A DNA stretch of 64,000 bases from a virus: the IMG/VR virus record IMGVR_UViG_3300031772_000009, positions 1-64,000 of that record, one strand, 5' to 3'. The translations under genes and the position numbers were made by a program. The first letter of the stretch is position 1. Every line of letters begins with the position of its first letter. The notes under the pieces were generated by a model, which did not search any database, was not told the DNA's origin, and was given only the letters and a program-made list of their open reading frames with translations. This document shows, piece by piece, positions 3,543 through 59,952 of the stretch.

Positions 3543-4696
3543 TAGACAAAATATTGTGGTGGTGTCCCACTCCTTGGGAAAATGACGGTGGAGCAATCGT
3601 TACCTTTTACCAAATGAGAGAAATGAATCAACAATGTCCAGAAATCACAAACCATTTAATACCTAAAGTGTGGAGTCAAGCAGACCAAACTGAACTTCCA
3701 TTCTGTAAATTTCATAAGGCAACAACGAAATATTTTGGTCAAGTACCCAATGAAATCCCCAAAATTATGAAGAGAGAACAAATCAAACTGTTGGTTTTGT
3801 TCCATATTCCATGGGAATATTTTCCAATAATAGACAAGGTTCATAAGATGGGTGGCAAAGTGATTAATTGGCAAACCATCCACTGGACTAATGACGTGTT
3901 GTTTCTAAGCGATAAACTTAAAGATTTTGATTGGTGGATTCCGCCAACACAATACGCAATGGAAACTTTAGTAGGGGTAGGTGGACTAAGTAGGGGTAGG
4001 ATGACTGTTATTCCACATGGAGTTGACACTTCATATTTCTTTCCGCATGACACAAGTGAACTTCGAAACAATTTAGGAATTAAACCAGACCAGAAAATGA
4101 TATTGTTTGTTGGAAGAGTACAACTTACCAAAGGAATAATTCCAATGATGCTCACAGCAAGAAAACTCTGTGATAATTTTGACTGTCACATAGTCTTTAA
4201 AGCTGGAGTTCATGATGGAGTCTGGAAAGCAAAAGAAATGGCTCATCTACTGCATAAAATGACAAAGTGGGATTCAAGAATACATTTCCTTACAAATTGG
4301 ACTACGCCAAGTTTCATGGAAGAATTAACAGCCGCATGTGACATTCTAGTTTGTCCAAGCGGTCACGAAGGATTCAGTCTTCCACCGTTAGAAGCTATGG
4401 CTTGCAATAAACCAGTAGCAATAACAGACATTCCAGTTCATAGAGAACTTCTAGGCGGCAAAAACGGCATATGTGGCTTATTGATGCCGCCCTTCATGTC
4501 AACAGAATACGTTAACGATGTCCAAATGGTCACTATTCCTTCAGACGATATGATTTATGGCTCAATAAAATATTTGTTGGAGAATCCAGACGAAGCAAAG
4601 GTAATGGGAGAGGAAGGTTTAAAAAGAGCAAAGCAATATTATGATTTACGTGAAGTGTGTAAAAAATGGTTCTCTCTTCTCAATAATTTCATCTAA
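3539..4696 (+). CDS. glycosyltransferase family 4
   Basis: IPHGVD, FVGR..KG, EGFSLPPLEAMAC. Confidence 0.93.
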   Translation: MIDKILWWCPTPWENDGGAIVTFYQMREMNQQCPEITNHLIPKVWSQADQTELPFCKFHKATTKYFGQVPNEIPKIMKREQIKLLVLFHIPWEYFPIIDKVHKMGGKVINWQTIHWTNDVLFLSDKLKDFDWWIPPTQYAMETLVGVGGLSRGRMTVIPHGVDTSYFFPHDTSELRNNLGIKPDQKMILFVGRVQLTKGIIPMMLTARKLCDNFDCHIVFKAGVHDGVWKAKEMAHLLHKMTKWDSRIHFLTNWTTPSFMEELTAACDILVCPSGHEGFSLPPLEAMACNKPVAITDIPVHRELLGGKNGICGLLMPPFMSTEYVNDVQMVTIPSDDMIYGSIKYLLENPDEAKVMGEEGLKRAKQYYDLREVCKKWFSLLNNFI

Positions 4697-4756
4697 ATTT
4701 TATAGAAAGATTTAAATATGAGATAAGTTATATATTTCATAGTTGGTGTATTAACC

Positions 4757-5287
4757 ATTAAAAAAATCTGTGTAAATTGTGGAAAGGAATATGATTGTGG
4801 AAGGAAAAGACAAAGAGGAGCGAGTGCTAAAACATGTTCTTTTCAATGTTTTCAAGAATGGCAAAAGAAATATAGGAAAAATTACTATGAAAAAAATAAA
4901 GAATTAATTCTAAAAAAACAGTTAGTATATATTCATAAAAAGAGACAAGAAAATCCAGAATGGTGGAAAGAATATCTTCTAAAATCAGCAATTAAATTGA
5001 AGATGTGGAACGAAAAACATCCAAATTATATTAATGAAAGAAATGCTAAAAGAAAAAAGGAACTAATTGATTTGCTTGGTGGAAAATGCCAAAAATGTGG
5101 ATATGATAAATGTACTGCGGCTTTAGATTTTCATCATGTAAATTCAAACGATAAAGAAAAAAAATACAAGGTAAAGAAATCAAGAGAATGGAGATTATAT
5201 AAAAAAGAAATAGAACAAAACATAAAAGAAGGAAAAGTTATTCTTTTATGTTCTAATTGTCATAGGGAGATACACCATGATAATTAA
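4757..5287 (+). CDS. HNH homing endonuclease (probable ATT start)
   Basis: LGGKCQKCG..LDFHH..LLCSNCH; frame is open from ATT 4757 and encodes an N-terminal CxxC..CSxxC finger; own TATA at ~4710. Confidence 0.85.
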   Translation: MKKICVNCGKEYDCGRKRQRGASAKTCSFQCFQEWQKKYRKNYYEKNKELILKKQLVYIHKKRQENPEWWKEYLLKSAIKLKMWNEKHPNYINERNAKRKKELIDLLGGKCQKCGYDKCTAALDFHHVNSNDKEKKYKVKKSREWRLYKKEIEQNIKEGKVILLCSNCHREIHHDN

Positions 5288-5317
5288 ATGGTTTGACTTG
5301 TTTGGGAAGTTGGAAGA

Positions 5318-5674
5318 ATGAAAAAGATAAAAGTTCCACATGTAATAGTCTTGATTAATCCGTCCAAACCAGAACCTCAACAAGATTTAAATGGTGAAAT
5401 CAAACTTTTCACTAATCAATTGGAAGAGTTTGCCCATTTAAATTTTTCAAAAGTTAAGAAGGAAAGAATGGTATATATAAGTGGGGTTAATGTTGACGGA
5501 GAATATCGTAAACGGGGATATGGAAGATTATTAGTTTCAATTTTTGAGTCTCTAGTTAAATCTTGGAGTTTAAAACAGATTTATCTAATCGTGGCTGATG
5601 ATGACGCTGAAAAGTTCTGGAAAAAAATGGGATATGTTGAAGAAGAAGATTACATGGTGAAAAAGATTAAATGA
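5318..5674 (+). CDS. GNAT acetyltransferase
   Basis: V..EYRKRGYG, AEKFWKKMGY. Confidence 0.88.
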   Translation: MKKIKVPHVIVLINPSKPEPQQDLNGEIKLFTNQLEEFAHLNFSKVKKERMVYISGVNVDGEYRKRGYGRLLVSIFESLVKSWSLKQIYLIVADDDAEKFWKKMGYVEEEDYMVKKIK

Positions 5675-6159
5675 AACCGAAAACCGAAAGTGAAAAGACG
5701 AACAGACTCATTCTTAAGCGACTTACTAGCATAGAATTTAGACTTGGAACACTGGAGAATACTTTGCGAATATTAGAAAGTGGAATTGATAAACCCAAAC
5801 GATATTTATTATTCGGTGAATGTGTGCCGCCACCATCAGTATGTAAAGACATATATGGAACAATGATTGGAAACTCAAGTTATGAGGGGTTCTTAGGAAG
5901 ACTTGCTGAATATTACAAATGTGAACGTATGAAATTGTTAGTAAATCCAGAAAGAAATAGAGAGGACACTATAGCAATGTATTATCCATATGAAAAGATA
6001 GCATATTCAAAAGATGCTACGGTTGCCCAAAGTACGGTTCTGCATGAGTGGTTTCATCATATGGTAAATCTTGGAGTCGTATATCTATCAGAAAAGGAAA
6101 AGAAAGAAGAGGAAGTTTACGCTAGAAATTTTACAGAAATGTTTTTGGGGAGAATATGA
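5671..6159 (+). CDS. HExxH zincin-like protein
   Basis: VLHEWFHH...EE..A. Confidence 0.65.
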   Translation: MKPKTESEKTNRLILKRLTSIEFRLGTLENTLRILESGIDKPKRYLLFGECVPPPSVCKDIYGTMIGNSSYEGFLGRLAEYYKCERMKLLVNPERNREDTIAMYYPYEKIAYSKDATVAQSTVLHEWFHHMVNLGVVYLSEKEKKEEEVYARNFTEMFLGRI

Positions 6160-7904: not shown

Positions 7905-8976
7905 AGTTAAAAAGTGTAGAAAATGTGGAAGAAAAATATCCTTTGCTGATGATAGAGATTACTGTGTTCCATGTGGCAAAATAGTAGTAGAAGAACAAAA
8001 ATTGCAAACACAACAGAACGAAAGAGAAAAACTGAATATGTATATACGACAGAAGGAAGAAGAACTTAGAAAGGAAGGTTTGGCTACAAGTAGAGGGTTT
8101 CTAAACGTTTTAGTAATTATTGATGCGTATGGATGGGCTTATGATTTCATCATGAGGGGGATTCAAAAATATAGTAAACATAATATTAGAATTGTGGCTA
8201 TTGCAGACATTACTAAAGAAGACGTGGAGTGGCTTGACGTTTTGTATTGTATGCATGGTTGCATATTGAATGATATATGCAATCATATTGGTCTTTTCAA
8301 AGACGTGAAAAGAAAATGTATTGGAATATTTAGTGAAGTGTATGACGAGGACATTATCAAGATGGTTGGATGGAATGTTGGAGTTGCAAACCAGAAAATC
8401 TATGATGATATAATGCGAAAAACTCCACGTATCCCATTGAAAGGATTATATGTTACAAGGGCTGGCGTTGACACTGAAATTTTCAAACCGATGGATAGAC
8501 CAGATAATAGATTCATTGTTGGTTGGGTTGGTTGGGCTGACCGTCCACTTAAACGTTACAGATTACTTAAAGACTTAAAGTTTCCATTTATAGTTCAAAC
8601 TAAATGGGGATGGAAATTCTTCGTTAAAGACCGTTCAAGAGATGAAATGATTGATTTCTACAGTAGAATAGACTGTTTGATAAACACAAGTGACTCGGAA
8701 GCGTTTCCTCTTCCAGTTCTTGAGGCGGCGGCAACTAGACTTCCAGTAGTGGCTACAAGGACGAGTGGAGTACCAGAATTCATAGATTCAGAATGGCTTG
8801 TTCCGATTAATCCAGAACATGTAGCCATGAGAGAAATGAATTCTAAACTTCAACTGTTAAAAGATAATTTATCGTTGCGAAAACAAGTTGGAGAACAAAA
8901 CTTGCAGAAAGTTTTAAATAGGTGGGCGTGGAAGTATATGGTAAAAGAGTTCGATAAAATGTTTGAAGAGTCATGA
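7891..8976 (+). CDS. glycosyltransferase family 4 with N-terminal zinc finger
   Basis: AGVD, VGWVG, SEAFPLPVLEAAA. Confidence 0.88.
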   Translation: MKVPKVKKCRKCGRKISFADDRDYCVPCGKIVVEEQKLQTQQNEREKLNMYIRQKEEELRKEGLATSRGFLNVLVIIDAYGWAYDFIMRGIQKYSKHNIRIVAIADITKEDVEWLDVLYCMHGCILNDICNHIGLFKDVKRKCIGIFSEVYDEDIIKMVGWNVGVANQKIYDDIMRKTPRIPLKGLYVTRAGVDTEIFKPMDRPDNRFIVGWVGWADRPLKRYRLLKDLKFPFIVQTKWGWKFFVKDRSRDEMIDFYSRIDCLINTSDSEAFPLPVLEAAATRLPVVATRTSGVPEFIDSEWLVPINPEHVAMREMNSKLQLLKDNLSLRKQVGEQNLQKVLNRWAWKYMVKEFDKMFEES

Positions 8977-9764
8977 TTATGAACAGCAAAATAGGAAAGA
9001 ATTGCAAAATAAGCGATAAAGCTAGGATTAATGTTTCAGAATACTTTGAAATTGGAGATAGAAGTATCATTCGTGATAATACAATAATCGAAGGTAGACA
9101 TATTGAAATAGGTAAAGAAGCATGGATAGACGAATATGCTCATATTGGGGGCGGAAGTTGTTTTGACTATCAATCCTTCCTAAAAGCTGGAGATTTCTTA
9201 CACATGGGCAAGTTCTCTCATGTAAATACGGCTAGAAGAGTTATAATAGGTAACGAATGTGGCATTGGTATAAACACTAAAATCTTTACTCATGGTGCAT
9301 ACCTTTCAGCCTATGAGGGGTTTCCGATACAGTTTGCCAATGTTGAAATTGGAGACAGAGTTTGGTTGCCTAATGCTTGGGTGAATCCCAATGTGAAAAT
9401 TGGAAACGATGTTGTTGTCGCCGCCATGTCTTTAGTTAATCGAGATTTACCAAGCGGTTGTTTGGCTGGTGGAATACCAGTAAAAATATTAAAGGAAAAT
9501 AGGTATCCTAGAAAGTTGTCTCAACAAGAGGAAGAACAATTGGTAATGAACATTGAGGATGATGTTCGAATGAAATTAAAGTTTGAAGAAAACAGAATTT
9601 ATCTTGAACATCCTAACACTACACAAGTTACGATGTTTGGTCTGAAAGAAAGAATAATTGAAGGAGTTGGAAATGAAAGAAGTGAAATTGTTAGAAATCA
9701 ATTGCGGAGATGTGGTATTAGGTTTAGATATTATATGGAAAATGGGAAGTATCTACCATGGTAG
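8973..9764 (+). CDS. hexapeptide-repeat (LbH) sugar acyltransferase
   Basis: hexapeptide repeats, VEIGDRVWL, GGIPVK. Confidence 0.88.
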   Translation: MIMNSKIGKNCKISDKARINVSEYFEIGDRSIIRDNTIIEGRHIEIGKEAWIDEYAHIGGGSCFDYQSFLKAGDFLHMGKFSHVNTARRVIIGNECGIGINTKIFTHGAYLSAYEGFPIQFANVEIGDRVWLPNAWVNPNVKIGNDVVVAAMSLVNRDLPSGCLAGGIPVKILKENRYPRKLSQQEEEQLVMNIEDDVRMKLKFEENRIYLEHPNTTQVTMFGLKERIIEGVGNERSEIVRNQLRRCGIRFRYYMENGKYLPW

Positions 9765-10375
9765 TATTAGCAATAGGAGCACATCCAGACGATATTGAAT
9801 TTGGTTGTTTTGGAACGTTGGCACGACTATCAAAAGTTCATGACATACACATTATTATCTTAACTCTGGGTGAATTGGCTGGTTCAAGCATTGTGAGAAT
9901 GGAAGAATGTAGACAGAGTGCAAAGTTGATTAATGCCACTCTACATTTCTTGGATTATGAAGAAGGAGACATATCTGTTAATGCTAGTAGTATTTTGAAA
10001 CTCAGAAATCACATTCGGTCAATTAATCCAAACATGATATTTACACTGTATCCTCAAGACACACATCAAGACCACAGAAATACTTCACAAATTACGGTTT
10101 CCGCTTGCCGTGATTGGAAACCAGATAGACAGAATATTGATGAAATACTATTTTACGAAGTAGTTAGCACAACGAATTTTCGTCCTAACATGTTTTATGA
10201 CATTACTGACTTTTTCCCTTTGAAAAAATCGGCTTTATCCATTCACTCATCCCAAAATGCAAAGATTTGCATGGATTTGAAAGTCTTGGAAGCATTGGCT
10301 CTCGTACATGCCAACAACTGTGGTTATAAAGACCGCTTATTCGAAGCGTTCTATCTATACAAAGCGGTTAAATGA
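9758..10375 (+). CDS. PIG-L/LmbE family deacetylase
   Basis: GAHPDDIE, HQDH, HSSQ. Confidence 0.93.
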   Translation: MVVLAIGAHPDDIEFGCFGTLARLSKVHDIHIIILTLGELAGSSIVRMEECRQSAKLINATLHFLDYEEGDISVNASSILKLRNHIRSINPNMIFTLYPQDTHQDHRNTSQITVSACRDWKPDRQNIDEILFYEVVSTTNFRPNMFYDITDFFPLKKSALSIHSSQNAKICMDLKVLEALALVHANNCGYKDRLFEAFYLYKAVK

Positions 10376-20745: not shown

Positions 20746-21543
20746 ATGCCTAAGACTAAAAAGATAGAAGAGAAATCAGATAAACCACAACCACCTAAAG
20801 CAGTGGTTTTGATTAGTACAGTTTCAAATATTGGTATGAGGAACGAGTACAGCGTTAACGCCATGATTCATTTGGCTTGGGTTTGCGGAGCATATGGAAT
20901 CCAGATAATCGCTGGAACATACGATGAATGCCCAATTAGCGTAGCAAGAAACATGGCTTGCGAAGAAATGCTTAAGAACCCCAAGATAACACATTTGTTC
21001 TTTGTTGATTCGGACTGTGTTCCAGACCCAGACACAATACTAAAGTTTCTCAGTTACGATTTACCAGTAGTTAGCGGCTGGTATCTAAGCAGAAAAGGTA
21101 GCGGTCTTCCAGTAGTGTTCAAACTTGAAGAATCCACAGAACACAAAACCATGCCTTCAATAGTTGCCCTTCACGACTTGTTCCCGAAATGGCGGAGTTA
21201 CAAGCTTGACGAACTGTTGACTTTACAGAAAGAAAAGAATGGACTAACAAAAGTGGACGGCGTAGGTGCTGGATGCTTACTGATTAAACGTGAAACACTC
21301 TCCCACCTTGACCAGCCATATTTCTTTGAAGACAACACCAAAAAATATGGTTTCGGAGAAGACTTGTTCTTCAGCCTCAACTGTAAACTCCACGACATTC
21401 CAATCTATGTTGACTTGAACAAGTTCTGCAAACACTGGACTTGGGGACTCATAGACATGCGACACGTCCAAGCATTGCTTCAACGGTCAAGACAAGAACA
21501 ACAACAAACAAAAACCCAACAACCCGAAAATCGCCCTATGTAA
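20746..21543 (+). CDS. glycosyltransferase family 2-like
   Basis: ARN, LFFVDSD, GAGCLLI, GEDLFF. Confidence 0.85.
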   Translation: MPKTKKIEEKSDKPQPPKAVVLISTVSNIGMRNEYSVNAMIHLAWVCGAYGIQIIAGTYDECPISVARNMACEEMLKNPKITHLFFVDSDCVPDPDTILKFLSYDLPVVSGWYLSRKGSGLPVVFKLEESTEHKTMPSIVALHDLFPKWRSYKLDELLTLQKEKNGLTKVDGVGAGCLLIKRETLSHLDQPYFFEDNTKKYGFGEDLFFSLNCKLHDIPIYVDLNKFCKHWTWGLIDMRHVQALLQRSRQEQQQTKTQQPENRPM

Positions 21544-21592
21544 CTCGATGGGGGTCTGTTAAAAACTAGGAGTATGTTTTTGGGGGTAACTG

Positions 21593-21817
21593 TTGATGGA
21601 AGGTAATATGACTCCGAAAGACAAAGAAAAGTTTGAGAGGATATGGAAGAAACTTGGCGAAAAAGAACTGAGCAATGACGATTTGAAACGGCTTGTCTAT
21701 TGGTTAATAATTGCATTGGGAGCAGAAGGTTGGTTTACTTTAGAATTAAAGGAAACGGCGAAACGTTTTGGAATCTTAGAATTACTTGAAGAAGGACTAA
21801 AATCTCCATCTGAATAA
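21593..21817 (+). CDS. hypothetical protein (C-terminus supplied by HNH cassette)
   Basis: tail duplicated at the end of the downstream HNH. Confidence 0.65.
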   Translation: MMEGNMTPKDKEKFERIWKKLGEKELSNDDLKRLVYWLIIALGAEGWFTLELKETAKRFGILELLEEGLKSPSE

Positions 21818-21856
21818 ACATAAGACTTATATCTCTCTTTTTACTTTATATTCTTT

Positions 21857-22414
21857 ATGTCTCAAGAAAATGAAAGATGTCATGAAAGACATAGAGAATA
21901 CTGTAGAAAATGGCGACAAACCCATAAAGAACAACTTAGAGAATATAACAAAAAATATAGAACCACTGAAAAATATAAGAAAAAACATAGAGAGTACTAT
22001 AAACATAATTCCAAAAAACATAATGAATATACTAAGAAATGGAGAGAACAAAACAAAGACCATGTTAAAGAATACACCAGAAAATACTATTTATTACATA
22101 AAAAAGAGAAGAATGTAGACCGCATGAATAGATTCCGAGAGTTAAAACAGAAATATGTTAACTTATTGGGTGGTAAATGTCAAATTTGCGGATATAATAA
22201 AGATAATGGAGCATTACACTTTCATCATTTAAATCCAGATGAGAAAGAAAGAACAAAGGAAGCTTTAAGAGTAGCTTTTGAGCCTAAAATAAGAAATGGA
22301 AGTATCCAGTTACTTTGTGCTAATTGTCATCAAGAAATACATGATGGATTCACGAATGAATTAAAGGAGACGGTTAAGAGACTAGGAATAGAAGACTGGT
22401 TCAAGAGAGAGTAG
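21857..22414 (+). CDS. HNH homing endonuclease
   Basis: LGGKCQICG..LHFHH..LLCANCH; basic helical repeats. Confidence 0.88.
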   Translation: MSQENERCHERHREYCRKWRQTHKEQLREYNKKYRTTEKYKKKHREYYKHNSKKHNEYTKKWREQNKDHVKEYTRKYYLLHKKEKNVDRMNRFRELKQKYVNLLGGKCQICGYNKDNGALHFHHLNPDEKERTKEALRVAFEPKIRNGSIQLLCANCHQEIHDGFTNELKETVKRLGIEDWFKRE

Positions 22415-22416
22415 CC

Positions 22417-22767
22417 GTGGACAAGAATAATCCTCAAGACCTCTACGACTGGTTCATAAGAGTGAGAATGGACGAACCACGTAACTGTAAAGAGTTACTT
22501 GATTGTGTAAAGGCATTCTTGTATTATATGGAAAATATGTATAGAAATCCAGAATCTAGTCAACTTTCACCAATCCTAAATCAACTAAGGCAAAAAGCTG
22601 GCAAAAACAGAACTGAATTTATCAGAAAGAAATTACTGTTGGGAGAGGACTTGGCGTGGTCTAGTCACGACTTGGAAGAAATAAGACGTGAAATTCATTT
22701 GGAAATTAAGAGGTTAGAGAAGAGAAAACGGAGACAAGCGTGGGAGTTAAGACATGCCAAGAGATGA
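22417..22767 (+). CDS. hypothetical protein, tandem paralog 1
   Basis: MDKNNP.DLY.WF..RM.EPRNC.ELLDCV shared with next ORF. Confidence 0.75.
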   Translation: MDKNNPQDLYDWFIRVRMDEPRNCKELLDCVKAFLYYMENMYRNPESSQLSPILNQLRQKAGKNRTEFIRKKLLLGEDLAWSSHDLEEIRREIHLEIKRLEKRKRRQAWELRHAKR

Positions 22768-22772
22768 AATAA

Positions 22773-23081
22773 ATGGATAAGAATAATCCAGAAGACCTTT
22801 ACAATTGGTTCATGAAAATTCGTATGGCTGAACCACGGAACTGTCAAGAACTTCTGGACTGTGTAAATGCAATCTTAGCGTATATGGAAGAACAATACAG
22901 AAAAGGAGATTCCAGTTACCAATCCAACATTACATTTCTAAGAAAGAAACTTTTGTTTAGGGAAGACTTGGCTTGGTCTGTTGAAGAGTTGGACAGAATA
23001 CGGGGCATAGTTCACTGGGAAATGAAGAGTATAAAGAGACGAAAACGTAAAGAAGAAAAGAAAGCTAAGAGAAAAGCTTAA
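22773..23081 (+). CDS. hypothetical protein, tandem paralog 2
   Basis: paralog of previous ORF. Confidence 0.75.
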   Translation: MDKNNPEDLYNWFMKIRMAEPRNCQELLDCVNAILAYMEEQYRKGDSSYQSNITFLRKKLLFREDLAWSVEELDRIRGIVHWEMKSIKRRKRKEEKKAKRKA

Positions 23082-23203
23082 ATAGTCTGTCACTGTCTTG
23101 AGTTTATAATGGACTAACTAATTACAAAAAACAGAATCTTTGCAATTGCTTACTAACCATTCGTTAACAGCGAACATTTATATACTCTAGCGAATATTGA
23201 TGG

Positions 23204-23358
23204 TTTTATGGAGAATGTTTATAAGTTTGGAATGATATTATATCTTTGTTTGTTGTCCCCAGTGTTCGTTAAGGACGCTGGTGTTTCATAGTCATCGGTT
23301 GTGAAGGCGACCCGTGAGTAACGTGAAGCCGACCAACCTTTGATATTTTCCCATAAAG
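23204..23358 (+). ncRNA. putative structured ncRNA
   Basis: TATA at ~23177; end pairing tttatgg/ccataaa; hairpins ccagtgttc/ggacgctgg and tcggtt/agccga. Confidence 0.4.
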
Positions 23359-23390
23359 ATTTATAAGAGACGAAGTTATTAGGGTAGACA

Positions 23391-23618
23391 GTGATTGAAA
23401 TGGTTGAGAAAATTAAAGTTGGATTGTTTGCACTTTTCCTTTCGCTCTGGATTCTAAATTTCTTTGGAGTCTACAAATACTTTGAGTGGCTGTTCGGACA
23501 AGAACTTTTGACTACTGTTGGAATAGTTGGAACAGTATTGGTTTTACCACTTCTTATTGTAGAATTCTTTCTCGGTATACTTATGCTTGGAGTATTTAAG
23601 GGAATAATGGAAGCCTAA
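23391..23618 (+). CDS. 2-TM membrane protein
   Basis: hydrophobic helices. Confidence 0.65.
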   Translation: MIEMVEKIKVGLFALFLSLWILNFFGVYKYFEWLFGQELLTTVGIVGTVLVLPLLIVEFFLGILMLGVFKGIMEA

Positions 23619-23633
23619 AAAGGCGAACCAGAA

Positions 23634-23939
23634 ATGGGATTGAAACAGAAAATCAGACAAGGAAAAGCCATTCATCTTAAATGTGGAACACCTATTTCGT
23701 TGCTTCCTCTTGGTTGGTTTTGTACTACGTGTAGTTCTTACATTGATAAGAGTATTGTTGTTCGAATTGAGGATGTAGATAAACTGTTGGATGAAGCCTT
23801 TAGAAAATGTGCTTACGTTGATTATAACGGGAAACCAGTATTTCTATGCTCTACTTGTAGCTTTTATCATGGTATGAAAAAAGGATGTTTATGGGAAGAA
23901 GATAGAAAAAAAATTAAATGGTTAAAAAAGGAAGCATAA
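23634..23939 (+). CDS. Cys-rich hypothetical protein
   Basis: CxxC motifs. Confidence 0.6.
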   Translation: MGLKQKIRQGKAIHLKCGTPISLLPLGWFCTTCSSYIDKSIVVRIEDVDKLLDEAFRKCAYVDYNGKPVFLCSTCSFYHGMKKGCLWEEDRKKIKWLKKEA

Positions 23940-24112
23940 CTGTGCATTTAGGTTTAGACGACATATTGTTTGCTCTGATTTTCATAATCTTCAATGCTTT
24001 CTTGGTTTCGATAGTGGATGGTTTACTACTGAAGTTGTGCTTTGCTGGATGGACGCTTTCAGTATTAGCCTTTGCAACCTACATAATTATTACGAGAGAT
24101 GAAAATGATTAA
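23918..24112 (+). CDS. small 2-TM protein
   Basis: hydrophobic. Confidence 0.55.
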   Translation: MVKKGSITVHLGLDDILFALIFIIFNAFLVSIVDGLLLKLCFAGWTLSVLAFATYIIITRDEND

Positions 24113-24476
24113 GATAACGAGTGACTTAGGCGAATTTCGGGAGAGAGAACACTATCACGAATGGATTGAGCCTTGGACATTCGGAGTATATAAAGGCAAC
24201 ACGATATGGTATAGATACCGTCCTAAACCTTTAAGCGTTACACTCACGATACTACATGAAATCATACACTTGATTATTGATAAAAGTCTATCTGTAAACC
24301 ATGCAACTTTATGTCTGTCAACTTTATGTCTGTTCAGAGATTTCTTAGACGGAACATTAGACTTCATTAATGGAATCTTGCGTTACCGAGAATGGCGTGT
24401 CTCAATCCATGCAAATCTACAATATTACGTTAAAGCCAACTTTAGACACTGGTGGACTTGGGTGCGGTGCAAATGA
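24099..24476 (+). CDS. small HExxH protein
   Basis: TILHEIIH. Confidence 0.6.
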   Translation: MKMIKITSDLGEFREREHYHEWIEPWTFGVYKGNTIWYRYRPKPLSVTLTILHEIIHLIIDKSLSVNHATLCLSTLCLFRDFLDGTLDFINGILRYREWRVSIHANLQYYVKANFRHWWTWVRCK

Positions 24477-24643
24477 AGGAATCACTAATTATTACTTGGA
24501 ATGGAATTCCGATGTTCATTCCAGCTAAAAATGCGACTAGACAGTTAATGATAGAGTTATGGTTTGACGGTGATAAAATCCTAAAGGAATTAGGTATACA
24601 GAAACTTAAGAAAAGAGACCCAAGAAAGGCATACATAGTATAG
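24473..24643 (+). CDS. hypothetical protein
   Basis: ATGA coupling. Confidence 0.5.
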   Translation: MKESLIITWNGIPMFIPAKNATRQLMIELWFDGDKILKELGIQKLKKRDPRKAYIV

Positions 24644-24705
24644 GAGTGAGAAATAGTCCATAAACGTTTATATACCAGAACGTGTGAGATATATAGGATG
24701 AGAAA

Positions 24706-24873
24706 ATGTTTGACCCGATAGAGTTTGACCCTACCCCATTCAACGAAATATGGAAGAAGATGAGCAGTGACGTAGCATTAATACTGGTTGGCATATTCGT
24801 AATCTTGCTCATAGCATACATCGTAGATTTTACATGTCGCTGGTACGAAATAGGAAGGAAGTATAGAACATGA
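24706..24873 (+). CDS. small TM protein (not in ORF track)
   Basis: 55 aa downstream of promoter 24658; ATGA overlap with next ORF. Confidence 0.5.
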   Translation: MFDPIEFDPTPFNEIWKKMSSDVALILVGIFVILLIAYIVDFTCRWYEIGRKYRT

Positions 24874-25136
24874 AAGCAATTGTAACTGTAAAACTTCCGA
24901 GAAATACGAGACATGACCCACGAAATAAAGAGTTTGGAGTGTGTCCACTCTCCAAGTTTCTTAAAATTTACATGTGTTGTTCAGACGTTACTGGAGAACA
25001 CCACTCTTACATTGAGACTGGAACATGTATGAACGATATAGAATGTAAAGCTAAAGGTAAATTCAGACATGTTACCAGAATAGAAGTTGCGGATGAGTGG
25101 GAACAACCAAAACATATAGAGGTAGAACATCTATGA
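24870..25136 (+). CDS. hypothetical protein
   Basis: C..C.D..G.HHS..H.TRIE. Confidence 0.6.
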   Translation: MKAIVTVKLPRNTRHDPRNKEFGVCPLSKFLKIYMCCSDVTGEHHSYIETGTCMNDIECKAKGKFRHVTRIEVADEWEQPKHIEVEHL

Positions 25137-25390
25137 AGAAACAAACAGTCTGTATAAATTGTAAAAAGACTTTCTGGAGTAAAGCAATCAAGAACAAAGT
25201 CACTAAGAAAATAGAGGCTCTCGACAATATCTGTCAACTTTGCAAGAACGGAATTAAGCAGAGACAGATGAAACGTGGAGAAACCATTAGGGTTATTCCA
25301 GCAGAGTTTGAGAGATATATAAGATTCCGAGAACTTTATATTGCTGAAGCAAAACGTAGACAAGAAGAAAAGGAAAAGAATGTGAGATAA
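25133..25390 (+). CDS. zinc-finger protein
   Basis: two CxxC. Confidence 0.6.
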   Translation: MKKQTVCINCKKTFWSKAIKNKVTKKIEALDNICQLCKNGIKQRQMKRGETIRVIPAEFERYIRFRELYIAEAKRRQEEKEKNVR

Positions 25391-25824
25391 TGGGATTCGA
25401 TATAGACGTATTGGTTAAGGCTTACGAAGTTTGGAAGAAAACTCCGCTAGGCAAACAGATGGTAGAGGAAGAGAAGACTTGGATTCCAATTGAAATACCG
25501 AAAGACCAATTGCCTATGGGTTGGCATCTTACAGATGGTGGAATAAAAGATGGTTACTTTATTTACTCTAACGAAGGTTACTCTAACGAAGTTCACGTAG
25601 AATCGTCATGGGATGGAATACCAGTTCATATGGGTGGATACCCAGACCATTATCATATTACCGTTTCAGTTGTTGAAGACGATAACTCATTTGACGAGGA
25701 AAACGAAACAGACTCAAGCGAATCCAGAGAAATCGGCAAGTATAATGTCAAGAAGTTAGGCTGGAAGAAAGCCTTCGAGATGGCTAACAACTTAGCCTTA
25801 TACCACATGAAGGACTCAATATGA
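25390..25824 (+). CDS. hypothetical protein
   Basis: operon coupling. Confidence 0.6.
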   Translation: MGFDIDVLVKAYEVWKKTPLGKQMVEEEKTWIPIEIPKDQLPMGWHLTDGGIKDGYFIYSNEGYSNEVHVESSWDGIPVHMGGYPDHYHITVSVVEDDNSFDEENETDSSESREIGKYNVKKLGWKKAFEMANNLALYHMKDSI

Positions 25825-25834
25825 AGGTGATTAA

Positions 25835-26107
25835 ATGGTAAAGAAAGTAGTTAAGTGTATTTGCGGAACAAACAACCCGATAAACACGGATAAACACAAT
25901 TATAGAGAGAAACGATGCCGAAACTGTCTACGAGTAATTGACAACCAGAGTCCCAAACAGAGAGTTCTAAGCGTGTTCCAAATGAAAAAGAAGGAAGCAA
26001 AGAAACTTAGCAGAGAACGATTCATCAATCGGCTACTTACTCAGAAGATGTCAATGAAAGAAATAGAGAAACGTTTGGATAAACAATTTGATTTTGAGAA
26101 AAACTAA
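25835..26107 (+). CDS. zinc-finger protein
   Basis: GGTGA SD; CxC..CxxC. Confidence 0.6.
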   Translation: MVKKVVKCICGTNNPINTDKHNYREKRCRNCLRVIDNQSPKQRVLSVFQMKKKEAKKLSRERFINRLLTQKMSMKEIEKRLDKQFDFEKN

Positions 26108-26136
26108 CCTTCCCTTTTGTTTTAGTGAGGAATAGT

Positions 26137-26153
26137 CCATAAAGCTTTATATA
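26137..26153 (+). promoter_or_regulatory. CCATRA-class promoter (example of >12 copies)
   Basis: ccataaagctttatata; related copies at 23351, 24658, 30888, 32034, 32884, 39006, 39988, 41344, 42462, 45601, 45909, 57484. Confidence 0.75.
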
Positions 26154-26177
26154 GGGCAAGTGTATGATATATAAGTG

Positions 26178-26342
26178 ATGAAAATGAAAGTCGTTAAAGT
26201 CCAAATCACGAAGTTGAGTGGAGTTAAAGATGTGTGGGCAATCAAAATCATCGGAGAAGTTGAGGGAGTAATGATGCCTATGGAGTCTCTGGAAGCCTCG
26301 TTCTATTCAGAAACCGAACCTAAAGTGGAAGTGATAAAATGA
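26178..26342 (+). CDS. small protein (not in ORF track), C-terminus supplied by HNH cassette
   Basis: 54 aa ending EPKVEVIK; ATGA overlap with HNH. Confidence 0.55.
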   Translation: MKMKVVKVQITKLSGVKDVWAIKIIGEVEGVMMPMESLEASFYSETEPKVEVIK

Positions 26343-26740: not shown

Positions 26741-26768
26741 ACATGAAACCTAAAGTGGAGATAACAAA

Positions 26769-26951
26769 ATGAAAAGAAATAAAGATGGAAACGATATAAA
26801 TTTCACAGTTAGATGTTTAGACTGTAGAAAGCAATTGTCTGTCTCTATTGGATATGGCATTCCAGAGGAAAGTGAAGACAATAAAGTATTAGACTTCGTT
26901 AGGCTTCATCATAATGGACATAGAATAAAAATGATGGAGATAACTAAATGA
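26769..26951 (+). CDS. small zinc-binding protein
   Basis: CxxC...H..GH. Confidence 0.55.
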   Translation: MKRNKDGNDINFTVRCLDCRKQLSVSIGYGIPEESEDNKVLDFVRLHHNGHRIKMMEITK

Positions 26952-27664: not shown

Positions 27665-27665
27665 T

Positions 27666-36640: not shown

Positions 36641-36695
36641 CCAAAAGATTTAAATACATGGTTAATAATTATAATACTCAAAGAGATGATTAAAA

Positions 36696-37328: not shown

Positions 37329-37684
37329 AGAAATGTCCTTATTGTGGTAGTAAAAATATCTTCGAATACGGCAAGGATGAGGGCATGGTGATAAAGGCGT
37401 TCAATAAGGACGGAGAATACATCATGGCGAAAATAAAGCTGGATTTGCCACGCCCAATAGTTGAAAGGGTTAGAGAAGGACCGCCGAAACTTCCAGTGAT
37501 TCCAGAGAGTGAGATTATGGGAGCGATAAGCCATGTGCAAGCAGACTTTGGACTCGATGGAACTCCGTCTCATGACATGCCACTTATTGCGAAAGCAATT
37601 GCAGAGGAATGTAGGAAACATTTCTATTCTAGCCGTGGAAATCTATTCACGTATTACCAAAAATATCTGGAGAATCGAAAATGA
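37313..37684 (+). CDS. RNA ligase, C-terminal part
   Basis: GGTGA SD; CPYC then motif IV EGMVIK and motif V AKIK. Confidence 0.75.
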   Translation: MSKTIKKCPYCGSKNIFEYGKDEGMVIKAFNKDGEYIMAKIKLDLPRPIVERVREGPPKLPVIPESEIMGAISHVQADFGLDGTPSHDMPLIAKAIAEECRKHFYSSRGNLFTYYQKYLENRK

Positions 37685-37908
37685 TTAAAGATGAAGAGAA
37701 GTTCCAAGTTGGTGATTATATAGGATTCAATATTTTCGGGACAGATTTAAGAGGAACTGGAGAAGTTCTTGGAAAGGCATTAGAAGGTATTTGTCCCATG
37801 TGGATAGTATTAATAGATGAGAGACCTACAGATACAATGCGAAAAATAAAAGAGAAAGCACTTATAATTCAAGAGAACTTTATGACATTAATGGAGCGTA
37901 AAAAGTAA
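37681..37908 (+). CDS. SH3/KOW-like hypothetical protein
   Basis: FQVGD.....G.G.V. Confidence 0.55.
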   Translation: MIKDEEKFQVGDYIGFNIFGTDLRGTGEVLGKALEGICPMWIVLIDERPTDTMRKIKEKALIIQENFMTLMERKK

Positions 37909-38367
37909 ATGGAACTTGATAACATTAAAGTGAGTGCAACCGTGATAGTCATATCTAAAGACAATAAGGCTCTTATAGTGCAGAGACCACCAGACAAAGC
38001 ATTTCCGAATCTGTGGACGGTTGCGGGTGGCAAGATTCAAGACACTGATGGAATATTGGAAAGTGAGGGGTTTCGTTATTATTCAGTAGAAGAATGTGCA
38101 AGTCGTGAACTTTGGGAAGAAACTGGAATTACTGTTGAACTTGAGAAACTGAAATATCTTTGCTCAATTACTACGATATGGGGAAAGACAAGGCGTATTA
38201 TCTTAAGTTTCTATATTGTTCTGAACGTGAATGCTAAAGATATAGACATAAGATTAACTGAATGTCAAGCTTACAGATGGATACAAGAACATGAAATTCC
38301 ACAATATGGATTCATTCCAGACATCGGTGGAGAAATCAGAGAAGTCTTCAAACGAATTAAGAAGTGA
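37909..38367 (+). CDS. NUDIX hydrolase
   Basis: GG...EECASRELWEETG. Confidence 0.92.
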   Translation: MELDNIKVSATVIVISKDNKALIVQRPPDKAFPNLWTVAGGKIQDTDGILESEGFRYYSVEECASRELWEETGITVELEKLKYLCSITTIWGKTRRIILSFYIVLNVNAKDIDIRLTECQAYRWIQEHEIPQYGFIPDIGGEIREVFKRIKK

Positions 38368-38377
38368 GACAAAAAAG

Positions 38378-39004
38378 ATGAGTAAAACTATTATAGTTCT
38401 GATTATTCTAGCAATAATTATAGTGGGTTTCATTGGGTGGCAACTGTCTTTGCCTTTCAACACTCAAACATTTCACTACAAGCAGTTATACAACGAGATG
38501 AGTAAACCAGAATATCTTCAAAGTCTCAGAGAATTCTGTAAGAATGAACTTGGCGATTCTATTGACGGCTTGAACTATTCTCAGCTAGTAACTTGGGAAC
38601 GCAAATATCTAACGTACACACGAAATGAATTCACCAGACGAGAAATGCCAATTGACATTCTAAACTCCTACATTACTGATGGAGTGGCTTTCGGTAGGTG
38701 TGGAGAGTTTGCTTTGCTCTATACGGGACTGTGCCTTGCTAATAACATTCCAGTTAGATTAATATTAGACGAATCAAGTTGGACAAACAAGAGCAAGACT
38801 GGCGGTGCTGGAGACCACGTTTGGAATCAGATATATGAGAATGACAGATGGATTACGGTAGACCCCACCGAGCAACGGTTCGATGACCCAAAAATGTATG
38901 TCCGAGACTGGAATAAGGAAGTCAATAACGTGGTAGCCGTCTGGAAGGATGCTTCTGGAAACATGGCTACTGAAGACGTTACGAAAGTCTACTGTGAGAA
39001 ATAG
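38378..39004 (+). CDS. membrane-anchored transglutaminase-like (PNGase-like) protein
   Basis: N-terminal TM; GRCGEF, DHVW, W..VDP Cys-His-Asp triad. Confidence 0.8.
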   Translation: MSKTIIVLIILAIIIVGFIGWQLSLPFNTQTFHYKQLYNEMSKPEYLQSLREFCKNELGDSIDGLNYSQLVTWERKYLTYTRNEFTRREMPIDILNSYITDGVAFGRCGEFALLYTGLCLANNIPVRLILDESSWTNKSKTGGAGDHVWNQIYENDRWITVDPTEQRFDDPKMYVRDWNKEVNNVVAVWKDASGNMATEDVTKVYCEK

Positions 39005-39045
39005 TCCATAAAGGTTTATATAGTAGAAACGTTATGGTGAAGATA

Positions 39046-39121
39046 GGAGTATTATAAAGCGGTGTTGAGTGGAGTTAAGTCAAGTGGTGTGGAGATAAGT
39101 GGAGTAAACTAAAGTAAACCA
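39046..39121 (+). repeat. degenerate 5-nt periodic repeat (RAGTN)n
   Basis: gagtg gagtt aagtc aagtg gtgtg gagat aagtg gagta aacta aagta. Confidence 0.6.
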
Positions 39122-39175
39122 CAGAACCTACCCACCCATTTCCCGAATAAAAATCTGGAATGAGGTCTAAAAAAT

Positions 39176-39346
39176 ATGAGAGCTATTGAGACGGTAACAA
39201 TCTTGGACAAATCTACTGGAGAACTTTTTTTAATCAGATGTGGAAGTTGTGGAAATCCGATTTACCATATAATTTTCTTTGGATGTTCCGTTGATTATTG
39301 CCCAATTTGCCACCGAGCAAAAGGCAAAATTCTACACAATAATTGA
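39176..39346 (+). CDS. zinc-ribbon microprotein (not in ORF track)
   Basis: CGSCG...CPIC, 56 aa. Confidence 0.55.
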   Translation: MRAIETVTILDKSTGELFLIRCGSCGNPIYHIIFFGCSVDYCPICHRAKGKILHNN

Positions 39347-39351
39347 ACCTT

Positions 39352-39480
39352 CCAAAAAGTCGCCTATGTGCGACCCCACTTTTTCTTCTATTTTGGAGAG
39401 GGGGGCAAGTGCTTACCCCTCTCTTACATTCTTTCAGTGGTTGCACTACTGAACAGCCGTTCAGTTTTTAGAACGGTCTT
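39352..39480 (-). terminator. structured 3' element ending in hairpin + U-tract (copy 1)
   Basis: minus strand gtcgc-acatag-gcgac-TTTTT plus upstream hairpins; homologous to 46343-46445. Confidence 0.6.
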
Positions 39481-39598
39481 CCTTTGCTCAGTACACTATT
39501 TAAATGCTCATCGCTATTGAGCATTCCCTTTTCTGGAAACTTAACTGTTTTCTAGCTTTTTTTCGGTGGAAAGTGGTCACATATCGGCGGGTCAAATT

Positions 39599-39919
39599 TC
39601 ACTGAGTTCTGAGGCGTTTCTGATATGGATTACTTGTTATATTGTGGCTTTCACCATGGTAAACAGAGACCACCATAACGCCTTTCTCATATGACTCACA
39701 CCACACTACGGTTAGACCATTCCAGAAACTAGAATGATGTGGTTTCTTATTCCATGCCCTAGACTTGTCATTCTGATTAGAACGGTCAAATTTGGCAATT
39801 CCGTTCAGCAAGACCTCTTTCACTTCTTGTTCCGTGATGTTCTCCAGAGCCATCTTCTGTTTTGCATGTTGACTATAATACAAGCCATTTTCTACTAAAG
39901 TTTCCAATTGCATAACCAT
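39599..39919 (-). CDS. DUF4258 (RelE/BrnT-like) protein
   Basis: YSQHAKQKM..NIT..EV..VL..G; VVSVY. Confidence 0.7.
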   Translation of the reverse strand: MVMQLETLVENGLYYSQHAKQKMALENITEQEVKEVLLNGIAKFDRSNQNDKSRAWNKKPHHSSFWNGLTVVWCESYEKGVMVVSVYHGESHNITSNPYQKRLRTQ

Positions 39920-40036
39920 ATCTACACGGTTCGACTATATAAACTTGGCATGGAGTTACAGACACGTTTCAGAATTTCGGAATAAAACCATTAAAGCTTA
40001 AATAGTGGAAGCATAAGGATATATAAGTGATGTAAG

Positions 40037-40306
40037 ATGAGATTCAAATTTTACTTTCCTAGAATAACAGAATGTATTGTTGACGGATTAAAGATTAGAA
40101 GGCGTGTTTCACATGATATTTTTGTGAGATGTGACGGAATATTCGACATGGACAGTAAAGGAAGAGTAATATTCGTTTTTGGCAAAAGTCACACTTTCAA
40201 AAGCGTCATTGACACGATAAACCATGAAAGCCTACATTGGGTTCTGGACAAGATTGAGGGATATGACGTTTCTCAAGCATTTGATAAGATAATTGGTTTT
40301 GAATAA
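40037..40306 (+). CDS. small HExxH protein
   Basis: INHESLHW..EG..S..FD. Confidence 0.65.
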   Translation: MRFKFYFPRITECIVDGLKIRRRVSHDIFVRCDGIFDMDSKGRVIFVFGKSHTFKSVIDTINHESLHWVLDKIEGYDVSQAFDKIIGFE

Positions 40307-40308
40307 AA

Positions 40309-40737
40309 ATGACAACAGAACAACGAAAAGAACAAATGAGAAAATATAATCGAGTATATCATCAAGAACATAAAGAACAACTTAAAGAATACCGTAAACA
40401 ATGGTATAAAAACCATCCAGAATACTTTAGAGAATATAACAAGAAATGGCATAAAGAACATCCAGAACAATCTAAAGAATCTAAAAGAAAATATATTCGT
40501 AAACTTCACGATAGAGTTATTGATTTTCTTGGTGGAAAGTGTGTAAGTTGTGGAATAACCGATAAACGAGTATTACAAGTAAACCATATCAATAATGATG
40601 GAACAGAGGAAATCAAAAAGATTGGTACAAGACCATTTTATTTTGCTATTCTCCAGAATAAAAGACCGATTAATGATTTAGATGTTAGATGTGCCAATTG
40701 TAATATTCTCTATAGATGGAAAGATAAGAAAAGATAA
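40309..40737 (+). CDS. HNH homing endonuclease
   Basis: LGGKCVSCG..LQVNH..CANCN. Confidence 0.85.
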   Translation: MTTEQRKEQMRKYNRVYHQEHKEQLKEYRKQWYKNHPEYFREYNKKWHKEHPEQSKESKRKYIRKLHDRVIDFLGGKCVSCGITDKRVLQVNHINNDGTEEIKKIGTRPFYFAILQNKRPINDLDVRCANCNILYRWKDKKR

Positions 40738-40744
40738 TTAAGGA

Positions 40745-41059
40745 ATGATAAAAATGAGTAAGGATAAGGAGATATTCGGTTTAACCATAGCGTCTTTTCA
40801 ATGTAATGCATTACAATATGATGAGAAAACCAGAACAATTCGTTTGCCTAACTTGTCATGGGTTAAACGTAAATTTGGATATTTACCAAAAGAAAGTGAA
40901 CTTGCGGGTATAAAACATCTTTGTCAATCTTTCACGCATGAATTCCTACATTTTTGGCTACATGAAAACATAGGTTATGGAGCCATGTATGAATGGGATA
41001 ATATAGACAAAAACAGAGAAAACACGGAATATTTAATATCCTCTATAGGAAGTCTCTAA
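40745..41059 (+). CDS. small HExxH protein
   Basis: THEFLHFW..IG...WD. Confidence 0.65.
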   Translation: MIKMSKDKEIFGLTIASFQCNALQYDEKTRTIRLPNLSWVKRKFGYLPKESELAGIKHLCQSFTHEFLHFWLHENIGYGAMYEWDNIDKNRENTEYLISSIGSL

Positions 41060-48342: not shown

Positions 48343-48729
48343 ATGTTTGACAGAAAAACCTATCAGAGAAAATGGAGACAAGAACATCCAAAACAAAAGA
48401 GAGAATATGATAGAAAATACCGTGAAAGACATATAGGACTATATCAAAAACATAAAGAGAAAATCAAATTCGAAAGGCAAAATATGAGACGTAAAGTTTT
48501 TGAACATTTAGGAAATAAATGTGTTTCTTGTGGTGAATCTGATTTTAGATGTCTACAGATAGACCACGTTCACGGACACGGAGTTAAAGAGATTAGAAAA
48601 CTATGCGGAAACAGTAAAGCCTATTACGACAAAATTCTTAACGATACTAACGGAAACTATCAATTGCTCTGTGCAAATTGTAATTGGAAAAAACGATACG
48701 ATAATAAGGAATATTCGAAATATCCTTAA
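48343..48729 (+). CDS. HNH homing endonuclease (close paralog of 26339)
   Basis: LGNKCVSCG..LQIDHVHGHG..YQLLCANCNW. Confidence 0.88.
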   Translation: MFDRKTYQRKWRQEHPKQKREYDRKYRERHIGLYQKHKEKIKFERQNMRRKVFEHLGNKCVSCGESDFRCLQIDHVHGHGVKEIRKLCGNSKAYYDKILNDTNGNYQLLCANCNWKKRYDNKEYSKYP

Positions 48730-58390: not shown

Positions 58391-58469
58391 AGTCACGTTT
58401 TAATTGTGACTTCTAACGCCTTTCTTTTTAGCATAACACTTATAACCATCTTTTGCAATACTAATTATA

Positions 58470-58880
58470 GTGAAACATATGAAATTTGACGAATCAGTAT
58501 TAAAAGCAATGGTTGAATTGGAAGGGTACAGTTTCGAGGAAGCCCAACTGTCATATGCTAAACGAGAGAATCTACCAGACTCGGCGTTTTGTGGTCCACA
58601 TAGGACTTATCCAGCCCATGATGCGGCTCATGTTAGAAACGGTCTAGCACGTCTTGGAACTTTCGGTCATAGACTTTCTCCAGCAGTGAGAGCAACTATT
58701 TTGCGTTGTCTAAAGGCAAGAGCGAAACGTTTCGGAATAGAAGTTTCCGAGACAAATGAAGGAAAACTTTGTTTGGCAAAATATGACGAGGAATTGGATA
58801 GTAAGACAAGACAGAAGTGGCTTATAGAAATCGAAGAAACTCGTAAGTGGTACGAAGAGACCGTATCCAAAAAGGAATGA
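58470..58880 (+). CDS. head-associated protein (DUF6582-like)
   Basis: LPDSAF..P.RTYP.HD..HVRN.LAR. Confidence 0.7.
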   Translation: MKHMKFDESVLKAMVELEGYSFEEAQLSYAKRENLPDSAFCGPHRTYPAHDAAHVRNGLARLGTFGHRLSPAVRATILRCLKARAKRFGIEVSETNEGKLCLAKYDEELDSKTRQKWLIEIEETRKWYEETVSKKE

Positions 58881-59116
58881 TGGATATGGAAAAAGCATCA
58901 GAACCGCCACAATATGCAACCCCATCCGATATTCGTTGGTTACAACAGCAAATAGAACGTGCTGAACGAAGAACACGAATACTCCTAGACATGTTAGTAG
59001 CAAAGAAAATCATTACTGAAGCCGAAGCCAAAATCTTCAATGAAACAAAAACAAATTCCGAAGAAATACTCGAATGGTATCTCGCTGAACTGAAAAAGAA
59101 AGAATCAACTAAGTAG
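58877..59116 (+). CDS. hypothetical protein
   Basis: ATGA coupling. Confidence 0.6.
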   Translation: MMDMEKASEPPQYATPSDIRWLQQQIERAERRTRILLDMLVAKKIITEAEAKIFNETKTNSEEILEWYLAELKKKESTK

Positions 59117-59128
59117 GGGGTTTTCCCT

Positions 59129-59674
59129 ATTCCAATAAACGTTTCGTGGAAATCTATTTATGATGACGTTTTATCAGAACTATATCTGAATTTTGGAATA
59201 ACCGCTCAAAAATTAGAACCTATATTTGGAGTTTGCTCATATACTCTACGGAAACAACTTAAACGATTGGGTATATTGAGAACAAGGTCTGATTGTCTCA
59301 AACTTATGTGGAAATCTGGAAATATAACATTTAATTATGATAAATCTGGATTTAAGAAAGGAAACAATCACCCAGACTGGAAAGGTGGAAAACATAAAGA
59401 TTCTAAAGGATATAATATTATTCTTGCTCCAGAAAATCCATTTTCAGCAAATGATGGATATATTTTAGAGCATAGATTGATTTGGTTTTCTATTCATCCA
59501 GAAACCCCGAAAGATTGGATAATTCATCATTTAAATGGTATAAGAGATGACAACAGAATTGAAAATCTCTTTGCTTGTTCAAGGAGAAGACATATAAAGG
59601 AGTTTCCTAATACTTATATCAAAGCATTACAAAATAGCATAAGAGAATTAGAAGGTGAATTAATACGCCAATAA
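59129..59674 (+). CDS. HNH homing endonuclease with HTH/NUMOD-like N-terminus (probable ATT start)
   Basis: HPDWKGG, YILEHRL, IHHLNG.RDDNRIENL; frame open back to 59117. Confidence 0.85.
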   Translation: MPINVSWKSIYDDVLSELYLNFGITAQKLEPIFGVCSYTLRKQLKRLGILRTRSDCLKLMWKSGNITFNYDKSGFKKGNNHPDWKGGKHKDSKGYNIILAPENPFSANDGYILEHRLIWFSIHPETPKDWIIHHLNGIRDDNRIENLFACSRRRHIKEFPNTYIKALQNSIRELEGELIRQ

Positions 59675-59952
59675 ATGTGAGTTGGAAATCAATGATTCAA
59701 GGAATGGCTAAACAGTATAAGACTGGAAAAGTTACGTGTAGAGATTTTTCTGACGGTTCTACGTCTTGTGCTTCTAGTCAAGCATGGAGCGTATTTTTTG
59801 CTACTCTCCGAAAACATGGATGGGACGAAAAAAGTTCTCGTCCAAATTCTGTTACTGAAACCGTTTTTACTGGAGCGGTAGAAGAGACAATGAAAGACAT
59901 TGTTGATTGGTTTGCAGAAAGTGTTGGATATTGTGGAGAATGTAACAAATGA
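59665..59952 (+). CDS. hypothetical protein (possible ACG start; GTG at 59677 is the alternative)
   Basis: GGTGA SD then ACG-PINVSWKS. Confidence 0.6.
   Translation, partial: TPINVSWKSMIQGMAKQYKTGKVTCRDFSDGSTSCASSQAWSVFFATLRKHGWDEKSSRPNSVTETVFTGAVEETMKDIVDWFAESVGYCGECNK

Follow-up and report, generated by a model that had tools for sequence, protein, structure and literature searches.

HNH endonuclease genes beside replaced gene ends in a metagenomic virus: probable homing cassettes that are neither introns nor inteins

Why should genes for HNH endonucleases lie, again and again in one viral genome, between two diverged copies of the same short gene terminus? The question is raised by the first 64 kb (64,000 nucleotides, nt; hereafter, the window) of a single 91,361-bp contig, IMG/VR virus record IMGVR_UViG_3300031772_000009, in which G+C is ~36% and nearly all genes lie on the plus strand. 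A sequence-only reading of this DNA had proposed that six HNH genes, with a weak seventh at 48343, are cassettes that insert in a gene end, bring a recoded copy of the disrupted terminus, and thereby home without an intron or an intein. The duplicated peptides do lie where that reading had placed them, and the arrangement holds for five of the six sites (cases 1, 2, 3, 4, and 6, numbered with their nucleases, h1 to h6). Judged from sequence comparison, these units are probably homing cassettes that replace a gene end. Below, the copy that now completes the host gene is called the substitute, and the copy left on the far side of the nuclease, the displaced native end or stub.

The most direct evidence comes from case 2, in which the following features are involved:

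21734–21817, plus strand: substitute 3' end of the 74-amino-acid (aa) gene at 21593–21817; the copies share 11 of 14 aa and 28 of 42 nt, with an Arg codon switched between CGT and AGA
21857–22348, plus strand: body of the HNH gene h2, whose frame lacks its own stop codon and extends into the stub
22349–22414, plus strand: in-frame continuation of h2 by the displaced native end (FTNELKETVKRLGIEDWFKRE, stop)

The read-contig (Logan) comparison of metagenome runs covered window positions 21001–41000 (sites 1, 6, and 7 lie outside), and the runs containing this genome are all sediment or groundwater metagenomes. In contigs from two independent sediment runs (X4, n=2; X6, n=1), position 21719 is joined to 22349, and the 14 nt at the joint are a diverged version of 21720–21733; in these empty alleles, the 74-aa gene therefore runs directly into the stub. 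The inserted unit is thus 21734–22348 (615 nt), and it is precisely present or absent among the sediment contigs: a 2-kb contig in run X2 carries the HNH gene, and the empty contigs of X4 and X6 have a depth of 27, versus ~7 over the HNH gene in X4. One 264-nt empty contig agrees with the window at 113 of 113 nt to the left of the unit and at 132 of 137 nt to its right (96–100% identity), whereas the two copies of the gene end differ at a third of their positions, which indicates that the substitute end arrived with the HNH gene. A duplication made on the spot would be near-identical, and the substitute end of case 2 was therefore imported. For the other cases, we infer a foreign origin of the substitute end.

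Two further sites have the same order at a 3' end, beginning with case 3:

26316–26342, plus strand: substitute end of a 54-aa gene (EPKVEVIK, stop), ATGA-coupled to h3
26339–26740, plus strand: HNH gene h3, with a PHROG HNH match
26746–26772, plus strand: displaced native end (KPKVEITK, stop), coupled via ATGA to the gene that follows
26769–26951, plus strand: 60-aa Cys/His-rich gene, with a third copy of the junction (repeat family D4) at 26935–26951

The two case 3 copies are identical at 22 of 27 nt. In L106, a viral contig without the HNH gene (78% aa identity), the gene ends in EPKVEITK, and its DNA agrees with the stub at 25 of 27 nt versus 22 of 27 with the present gene end; a second homologue, P0136, ends in EPKIEITK. 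As a separate observation at this locus, the 60-aa gene is flanked by the 17-nt junction TGGAGATAAC[A/T]AAATGA, of which there are three copies overall, and exactly one repeat unit (26756–26934) is missing from a contig of run X6. This difference could reflect a second insertion at that junction, this one lacking an HNH gene, or the loss of a unit through recombination between repeats.

Case 1 concerns a glycosyltransferase gene:

4664–4696, plus strand: substitute 3' end (KWFSLLNNFI, stop); the natural allele P0088 has a WFSLLN-type end too
4727–5287, plus strand: HNH gene h1 (phrog_2255, E 3e-17, residues 10–185)
5286–5321, plus strand: displaced native end (KWFDLFGKLEE, stop), whose TGA overlaps the start codon of the gene that follows (ATG at 5318)

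The copies at 4664 and 5286 share KWF.L, a similarity that is weak taken alone. Among the closest homologues of the enzyme, P0089 (88% identity) ends in QWFDLFGKLEE, which is the stub type. Another of the closest homologues, P0088 (92% identity), ends in KQWFSLLNGKLEE, that is, the WFSLLN substitute end followed by the GKLEE tail of the stub; it may be a natural allele of the donor type, or else one that was healed when the HNH gene was deleted. The glycosyltransferase itself is a mosaic, P0088-like over the N-terminal 100 aa and P0089-like in the middle. A scan of viral contigs with this single protein gave no match.

At two sites, it is the 5' end of the host gene that is duplicated:

32006–32050, plus strand: case 4, displaced native start (MCQINKMKI), now a 14-codon mini open reading frame (ORF)
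32072–32593, plus strand: HNH gene h4, whose last codons hold a GGAG ribosome-binding site for the restored gene
32595–32879, plus strand: case 4, host gene with substitute start (MCDISSMKI)
59129–59155, plus strand: displaced native start of case 6, which reads ATT followed by PINVSWKS and forms an in-frame fusion with h6
59129–59674, plus strand: HNH gene h6 (HNH_3 type), with no canonical start and with its stop within the substitute copy
59665–59952, plus strand: host gene of case 6, whose substitute start reads ACG followed by PINVSWKS; a GGTGA precedes it by 6 nt, and the GTG at 59677 may serve as start codon

The copies of case 4 are identical at 6 of 9 aa. Contigs of runs X2 and X8 remain collinear with the window through the first four codons of the stub (MCQI), as far as 32017, and the X2 contig continues with AKLKIRKRCK, which is homologous to SSMKIHRRCK of the host gene. 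The copies of case 6 agree at 8 of 8 aa and 18 of 24 nt, and all four changed codons, including TCG/AGT, are synonymous; both copies therefore appear to have evolved as working gene ends in separate lineages. A non-ATG codon stands at the equivalent place in each (ATT upstream, ACG in the substitute). In two HNH-free viral contigs, the host gene starts with MPIHTDWKS (L002) and MPIHKSWSS (L101), which identifies PINVSWKS as the true N-terminus and the upstream copy as the one in native position. Consistent spacing is seen as well: the stub begins 12 nt after the stop of the upstream gene, and the host gene in L002 begins 10 nt after the stop of the same gene. Three other contigs (L102, L103, and L105) have the neighbor gene and not the host gene, and the patterns chosen for an alignment-based scan for this neighbor were poor.

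In all five cases, then, HNH-free alleles or the ends of natural homologues match the stub, and the expectation that an empty allele should join the gene body straight to the stub was borne out at each of these sites. The host genes also remain whole, as had been claimed: the substitute ends keep the host ORFs intact and supply ribosome-binding sites or ATGA coupling, and in h4 and h6, the last codons of the nuclease gene hold the ribosome-binding site of the restored gene. Among the changed codons between copies in the five supported cases, 16 of 26 are synonymous versus ~20% expected, a biased figure, as the pairs were found by peptide similarity. The description of the termini as recoded fared less well: the copies are diverged, but recoding implies design, and the sequences are more simply accounted for if the substitute end is another lineage's functional allele travelling with the nuclease.

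The nucleases themselves are readily classified. All seven ORFs singled out by the sequence-only reading match PHROG HNH families (E 1e-6 to 1e-17), and the genome has at least nine HNH genes. A phmmer sweep placed eight of them in one family of paralogues, which start at 4727 (h1), 21857 (h2), 26339 (h3), 32072 (h4), 36696 (h8), 40309 (h5), 48343 (h7), and 87484 (h9), while h6 (59129) is a separate HNH_3-type gene (PF13392, E 6e-13). The CxxC...H...CxxC core is kept in all eight paralogues, with invariant C, C, H, C, and C columns; the motifs are intact, and the genes have the catalytic His and the CxxC...CxxC zinc ligands of the beta-beta-alpha-metal core (PHROG E down to 3e-17). Two of the reading frames begin irregularly. 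In h1, there is no in-frame ATG, GTG, or TTG before 4997, and the in-frame ATG AGA TAA at 4718–4726 suggests a nonsense mutation or readthrough. In the start region of h6 (59117–59131), GGGGGT is followed 7 nt later by ATT, and h6 shares its frame with the upstream gene, from which a single TAG separates it.

None of these units has the features of a group I or group II intron or of an intein, in agreement with the earlier proposal. An Rfam search of the window found no family, and hence no known intron there. In cases 1–4, stop codons lie between the host ORF and the HNH gene, and in case 6, the stop codon of h6 is within the substitute copy; these stop codons between host gene and nuclease exclude an intein.

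A further paralogue, h8, is inserted in the middle of a gene and not at its end:

36594–37363, plus strand: h8 cassette splitting an RNA ligase gene (36047–37684), with a tail on the N-terminal half and a head on the C-terminal half

A contig of run X2 joins 36593 to 37364 with 8 nt between and encodes an intact ligase (...LEYCN-TPK-EYGKDEGMVIK). The cassette adds KPKCQCLDCGKIFEN as a tail on the N-terminal half and MSKTIKKCPYCGSKNIF as a head on the C-terminal half, two similar pieces with Cys knuckles. In a metagenome locus (L031), an intact ligase (8584–9465) is followed by an HNH gene (9519–9959). The arrangement of h8 recalls the assembly tails of the mobE-split nrdA gene of Aeromonas phage Aeh1, in which an enzyme gene is likewise divided by an insertion that contributes C- and N-terminal tails to the two halves (Crona et al., 2011; PMC3045599). 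In the present genome, the divided gene encodes an RNA ligase, and the tails have Cys knuckles.

As a control for short-peptide similarity, the flanks of each of 180 genes were compared in three frames. By this measure, h2 ranked 2nd, h6 4th, h3 7th, and h4 9th, and the remaining top ranks were mostly taken by tandem paralogues. The low ranks of h1, h7, and h5 (69th, 92nd, and 157th of 180) mean that their flank similarity carries no meaning by itself. An equivalent control at the DNA level was swamped by junctions resembling ribosome-binding sites and by tandem paralogues (22417–22767/22773–23081 and the 34062–34617 series). The two remaining sites of the sequence-only reading have the following nuclease genes:

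40309–40737, plus strand: HNH gene h5 (case 5), for which the claimed duplicate is unsupported
48343–48729, plus strand: HNH gene h7 (case 7), an ordinary intergenic free-standing gene with no duplicate

In case 5, the two supposed copies have only 9 nt in common (AAGATAATT), the supposed stub overlaps the stop of the HNH gene itself, and three homologues end in IIGLR, IISLR, and KICLR, none of them in KIIKE; the match is best read as chance. The weak seventh case at 48343 had to be abandoned, and no duplicate was found at h9. Within 21001–41000, no empty-allele contig was found for h3 or h5, which is not evidence of absence.

How such units might spread can be sketched as follows. The mobile unit would consist of the HNH gene and a substitute copy of the neighbor's last 8–21 codons (cases 1–3) or first 9 (cases 4 and 6). 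The nuclease would cut a naive allele near the beginning of the duplicated segment, and the break would be repaired from a filled genome by pairing with the gene body on one side and with the stub and the sequence beyond it on the other. Repair would copy in the nuclease gene together with the substitute end, and the recipient's own end would be displaced as a fresh stub, which would explain why stubs still look intact. The host gene would remain whole but altered at the target, and so would probably be resistant. The first such arrangement probably arose by one-sided homologous repair closed by a non-homologous join. Two genes beyond the window are relevant here:

Contig 89858–90862 (L108:5858–6862): Rad51/RadA-type recombinase (PF08423, E 5e-38)
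Contig 77583–79775 (L107:13583–15775): archaeal LonB-like protease

The recombinase and the protease together make an archaeal host likely. The recombinase counts in favor of the cassette model, and points to a virus-borne recombination function of the kind that homing would use.

Several points weigh against this model. Cleavage, the cut sites, and resistance are inferred; a substitute end far more diverged than its flanks was seen directly for case 2 only; and the comparators for cases 1, 3, and 6 are more distant (an 88%-identical protein, or loci of 50–78% identity). In addition, h5, h7, and h9 lack a duplicate, so the arrangement is not universal in this HNH family; a non-HNH gene (26769–26951) is bracketed by the same junction repeat; and h1 and h6, which have no canonical start codons, may be decaying. 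These last three points would favor the view that the nucleases are ordinary intergenic free-standing homing genes (h1 and h6 perhaps inactive), with duplicates that are passive scars of occasional break repair, one-sided or illegitimate, unneeded for mobility and inherited by descent. We regard this as rather unlikely, for the same architecture recurs at five independent sites in one genome, and the substitute ends bear ribosome-binding sites and coupling signals. Moreover, the stubs are fresh: in case 2, the stub is near-identical to the empty alleles, and in case 3, to a distant allele without an HNH gene. This fits repeated homing that regenerates the stub.

A local tandem duplication on insertion, similar to a target-site duplication, with later divergence of the copies within the lineage, seems improbable. 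The short copies of case 3 (27 nt, with 5 differences) and the third junction copy at that site would suit it. It is opposed by case 2, in which the copies have mismatches at 14 of 42 nt, against 0 of 113 and 5 of 137 nt between the flanks and the empty allele, by the presence of substitute-type ends such as WFSLLN in natural alleles, and by case 6, since an unselected stub would not retain synonymous-only differences. Chance similarity of short AT-rich peptides beside HNH genes would be harder still to credit as a general explanation. On similarity alone, cases 1, 5, and 7 do not exceed background, but four HNH genes are among the top 9 of 180, and in five cases, the stubs are matched by independent HNH-free alleles; chance is thus refuted for cases 1–4 and 6 and holds for cases 5 and 7. 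Our preferred explanation is therefore still the homing cassette with a replacement gene end.

Other features of the genome are recorded here for completeness. No close relative of this virus was found among deposited phages by DNA and protein comparison, and AAA-ATPase loci of 60% identity (L019–L021) showed no synteny around the HNH sites. A homologue (P0005, 794 aa) of the AAA ATPase encoded at 29385–30770 aligns over 59% of the 462-aa query with 66% identity, and may hold an insertion, either an intein or a fused domain. Tandem paralogous small genes lie at 22417–23081 and 34062–34617; in the former, the 116-aa and 102-aa proteins (22417–22767 and 22773–23081) have the common start (V/M)DKNNP.DLY, and in the latter, metagenome strains differ by indels in a series of MDxxK... 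genes. Further strain-level gene indels or replacements in sediment contigs are found at 23617–23944, 27282–27367, and 35281–35457; for example, a 101-aa gene (23634–23939) is missing in X2, where 5 nt stand instead.

The class formed by an endonuclease and a replacement gene end is already known, and the claim that the strategy is new must be narrowed accordingly (PMC7282813; PMC3630166). For the WHO elements at FBA1 of Torulaspora and Lachancea yeasts, the model has been published and tested (Coughlan et al., 2020, PMC7282813; see also Osborne et al., 2026, bioRxiv 10.64898/2026.08.13.744650). Trees of gene body and gene end are reportedly discordant for FBA1. As in WHO elements, the units described here comprise an endonuclease gene and, in cases 1–3, a substitute copy of the 3' part of the host gene, with no splicing and a chimeric host gene, and the recipient's old end remains beyond the nuclease as a fragment that offers usable homology. 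In both cases 1–4 and case 6, the endonuclease lies beside a gene end and the substitute keeps the ORF intact, with the native end retained on the far side and joined to the gene body in empty alleles. These units do not belong to the WHO family proper, which has a LAGLIDADG, intein-derived nuclease with a zinc finger and FBA1 as host: the enzyme is HNH, the setting is a virus and not a yeast chromosome, the replaced pieces are 8–21 codons versus ~140, and the hosts are several different genes (a glycosyltransferase and small genes without an assigned function). Two sites replace a 5' end, and in some cases the nuclease and the stub form a translational fusion.

Mobile endonuclease ORFs (mORFs) in the atp6, atp9, cox2, and nad3 genes of Glomus form gene hybrids (Beaudet et al., 2013; PMC3630166), and one at Allomyces atp6 is attributed there to Paquin et al. 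(1994). Their order (inserted C-terminus, endonuclease ORF, native C-terminal stub) is the one seen here, and divergence is much greater in the inserted copy than in the native one and consists mostly of synonymous changes (PMC3630166). They differ in having LAGLIDADG or GIY-YIG nucleases, in residing in organelle genomes, and in that only 3' ends are reported. In Glomus and Allomyces, phylogenies reportedly put the substitute ends outside the local clade. Intronless homing by the free-standing seg and mob endonucleases of T-even phages, HNH enzymes included, takes place between or in genes, and break repair co-converts flanking markers (PMC2988022; PMC2790892); the insertions as reviewed are intergenic or gene-splitting, unlike the end replacement described here, and a review of T4 mobile elements has no word beginning with "duplicat". 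In the published literature covered, from which subscription papers are mostly absent, end duplication was described in fungal and yeast cases only, with no account for nucleases of phages or archaeal viruses. What is new here is the HNH nuclease, the viral and probably archaeal setting, the five sites in one 91-kb genome, the very short pieces, and the two 5'-end versions.

WHO elements were proposed only recently as a category apart from introns and inteins, and the present loci would extend end-replacing homing past yeast nuclei and fungal mitochondria to a probably archaeal virus and to HNH enzymes, including a mirror-image form in which the 5' end is replaced. Because public sediment metagenomes contain both filled and empty alleles, the target sites can be placed with a precision of a few bases. 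It could as easily prove right as wrong that viruses of prokaryotes harbor a general third class of homing element, neither intron nor intein, in which a compact HNH gene is accompanied by a substitute for one or the other end of its target gene, complete with ribosome-binding and coupling signals, and in which mid-gene insertions carry paired reassembly tails; this genome would then hold all three variants, polymorphic in the wild. Such cassettes would account for short orphan ORF stubs and mosaic gene ends near viral nuclease genes, with a bearing on annotation and on the reading of recombination boundaries.

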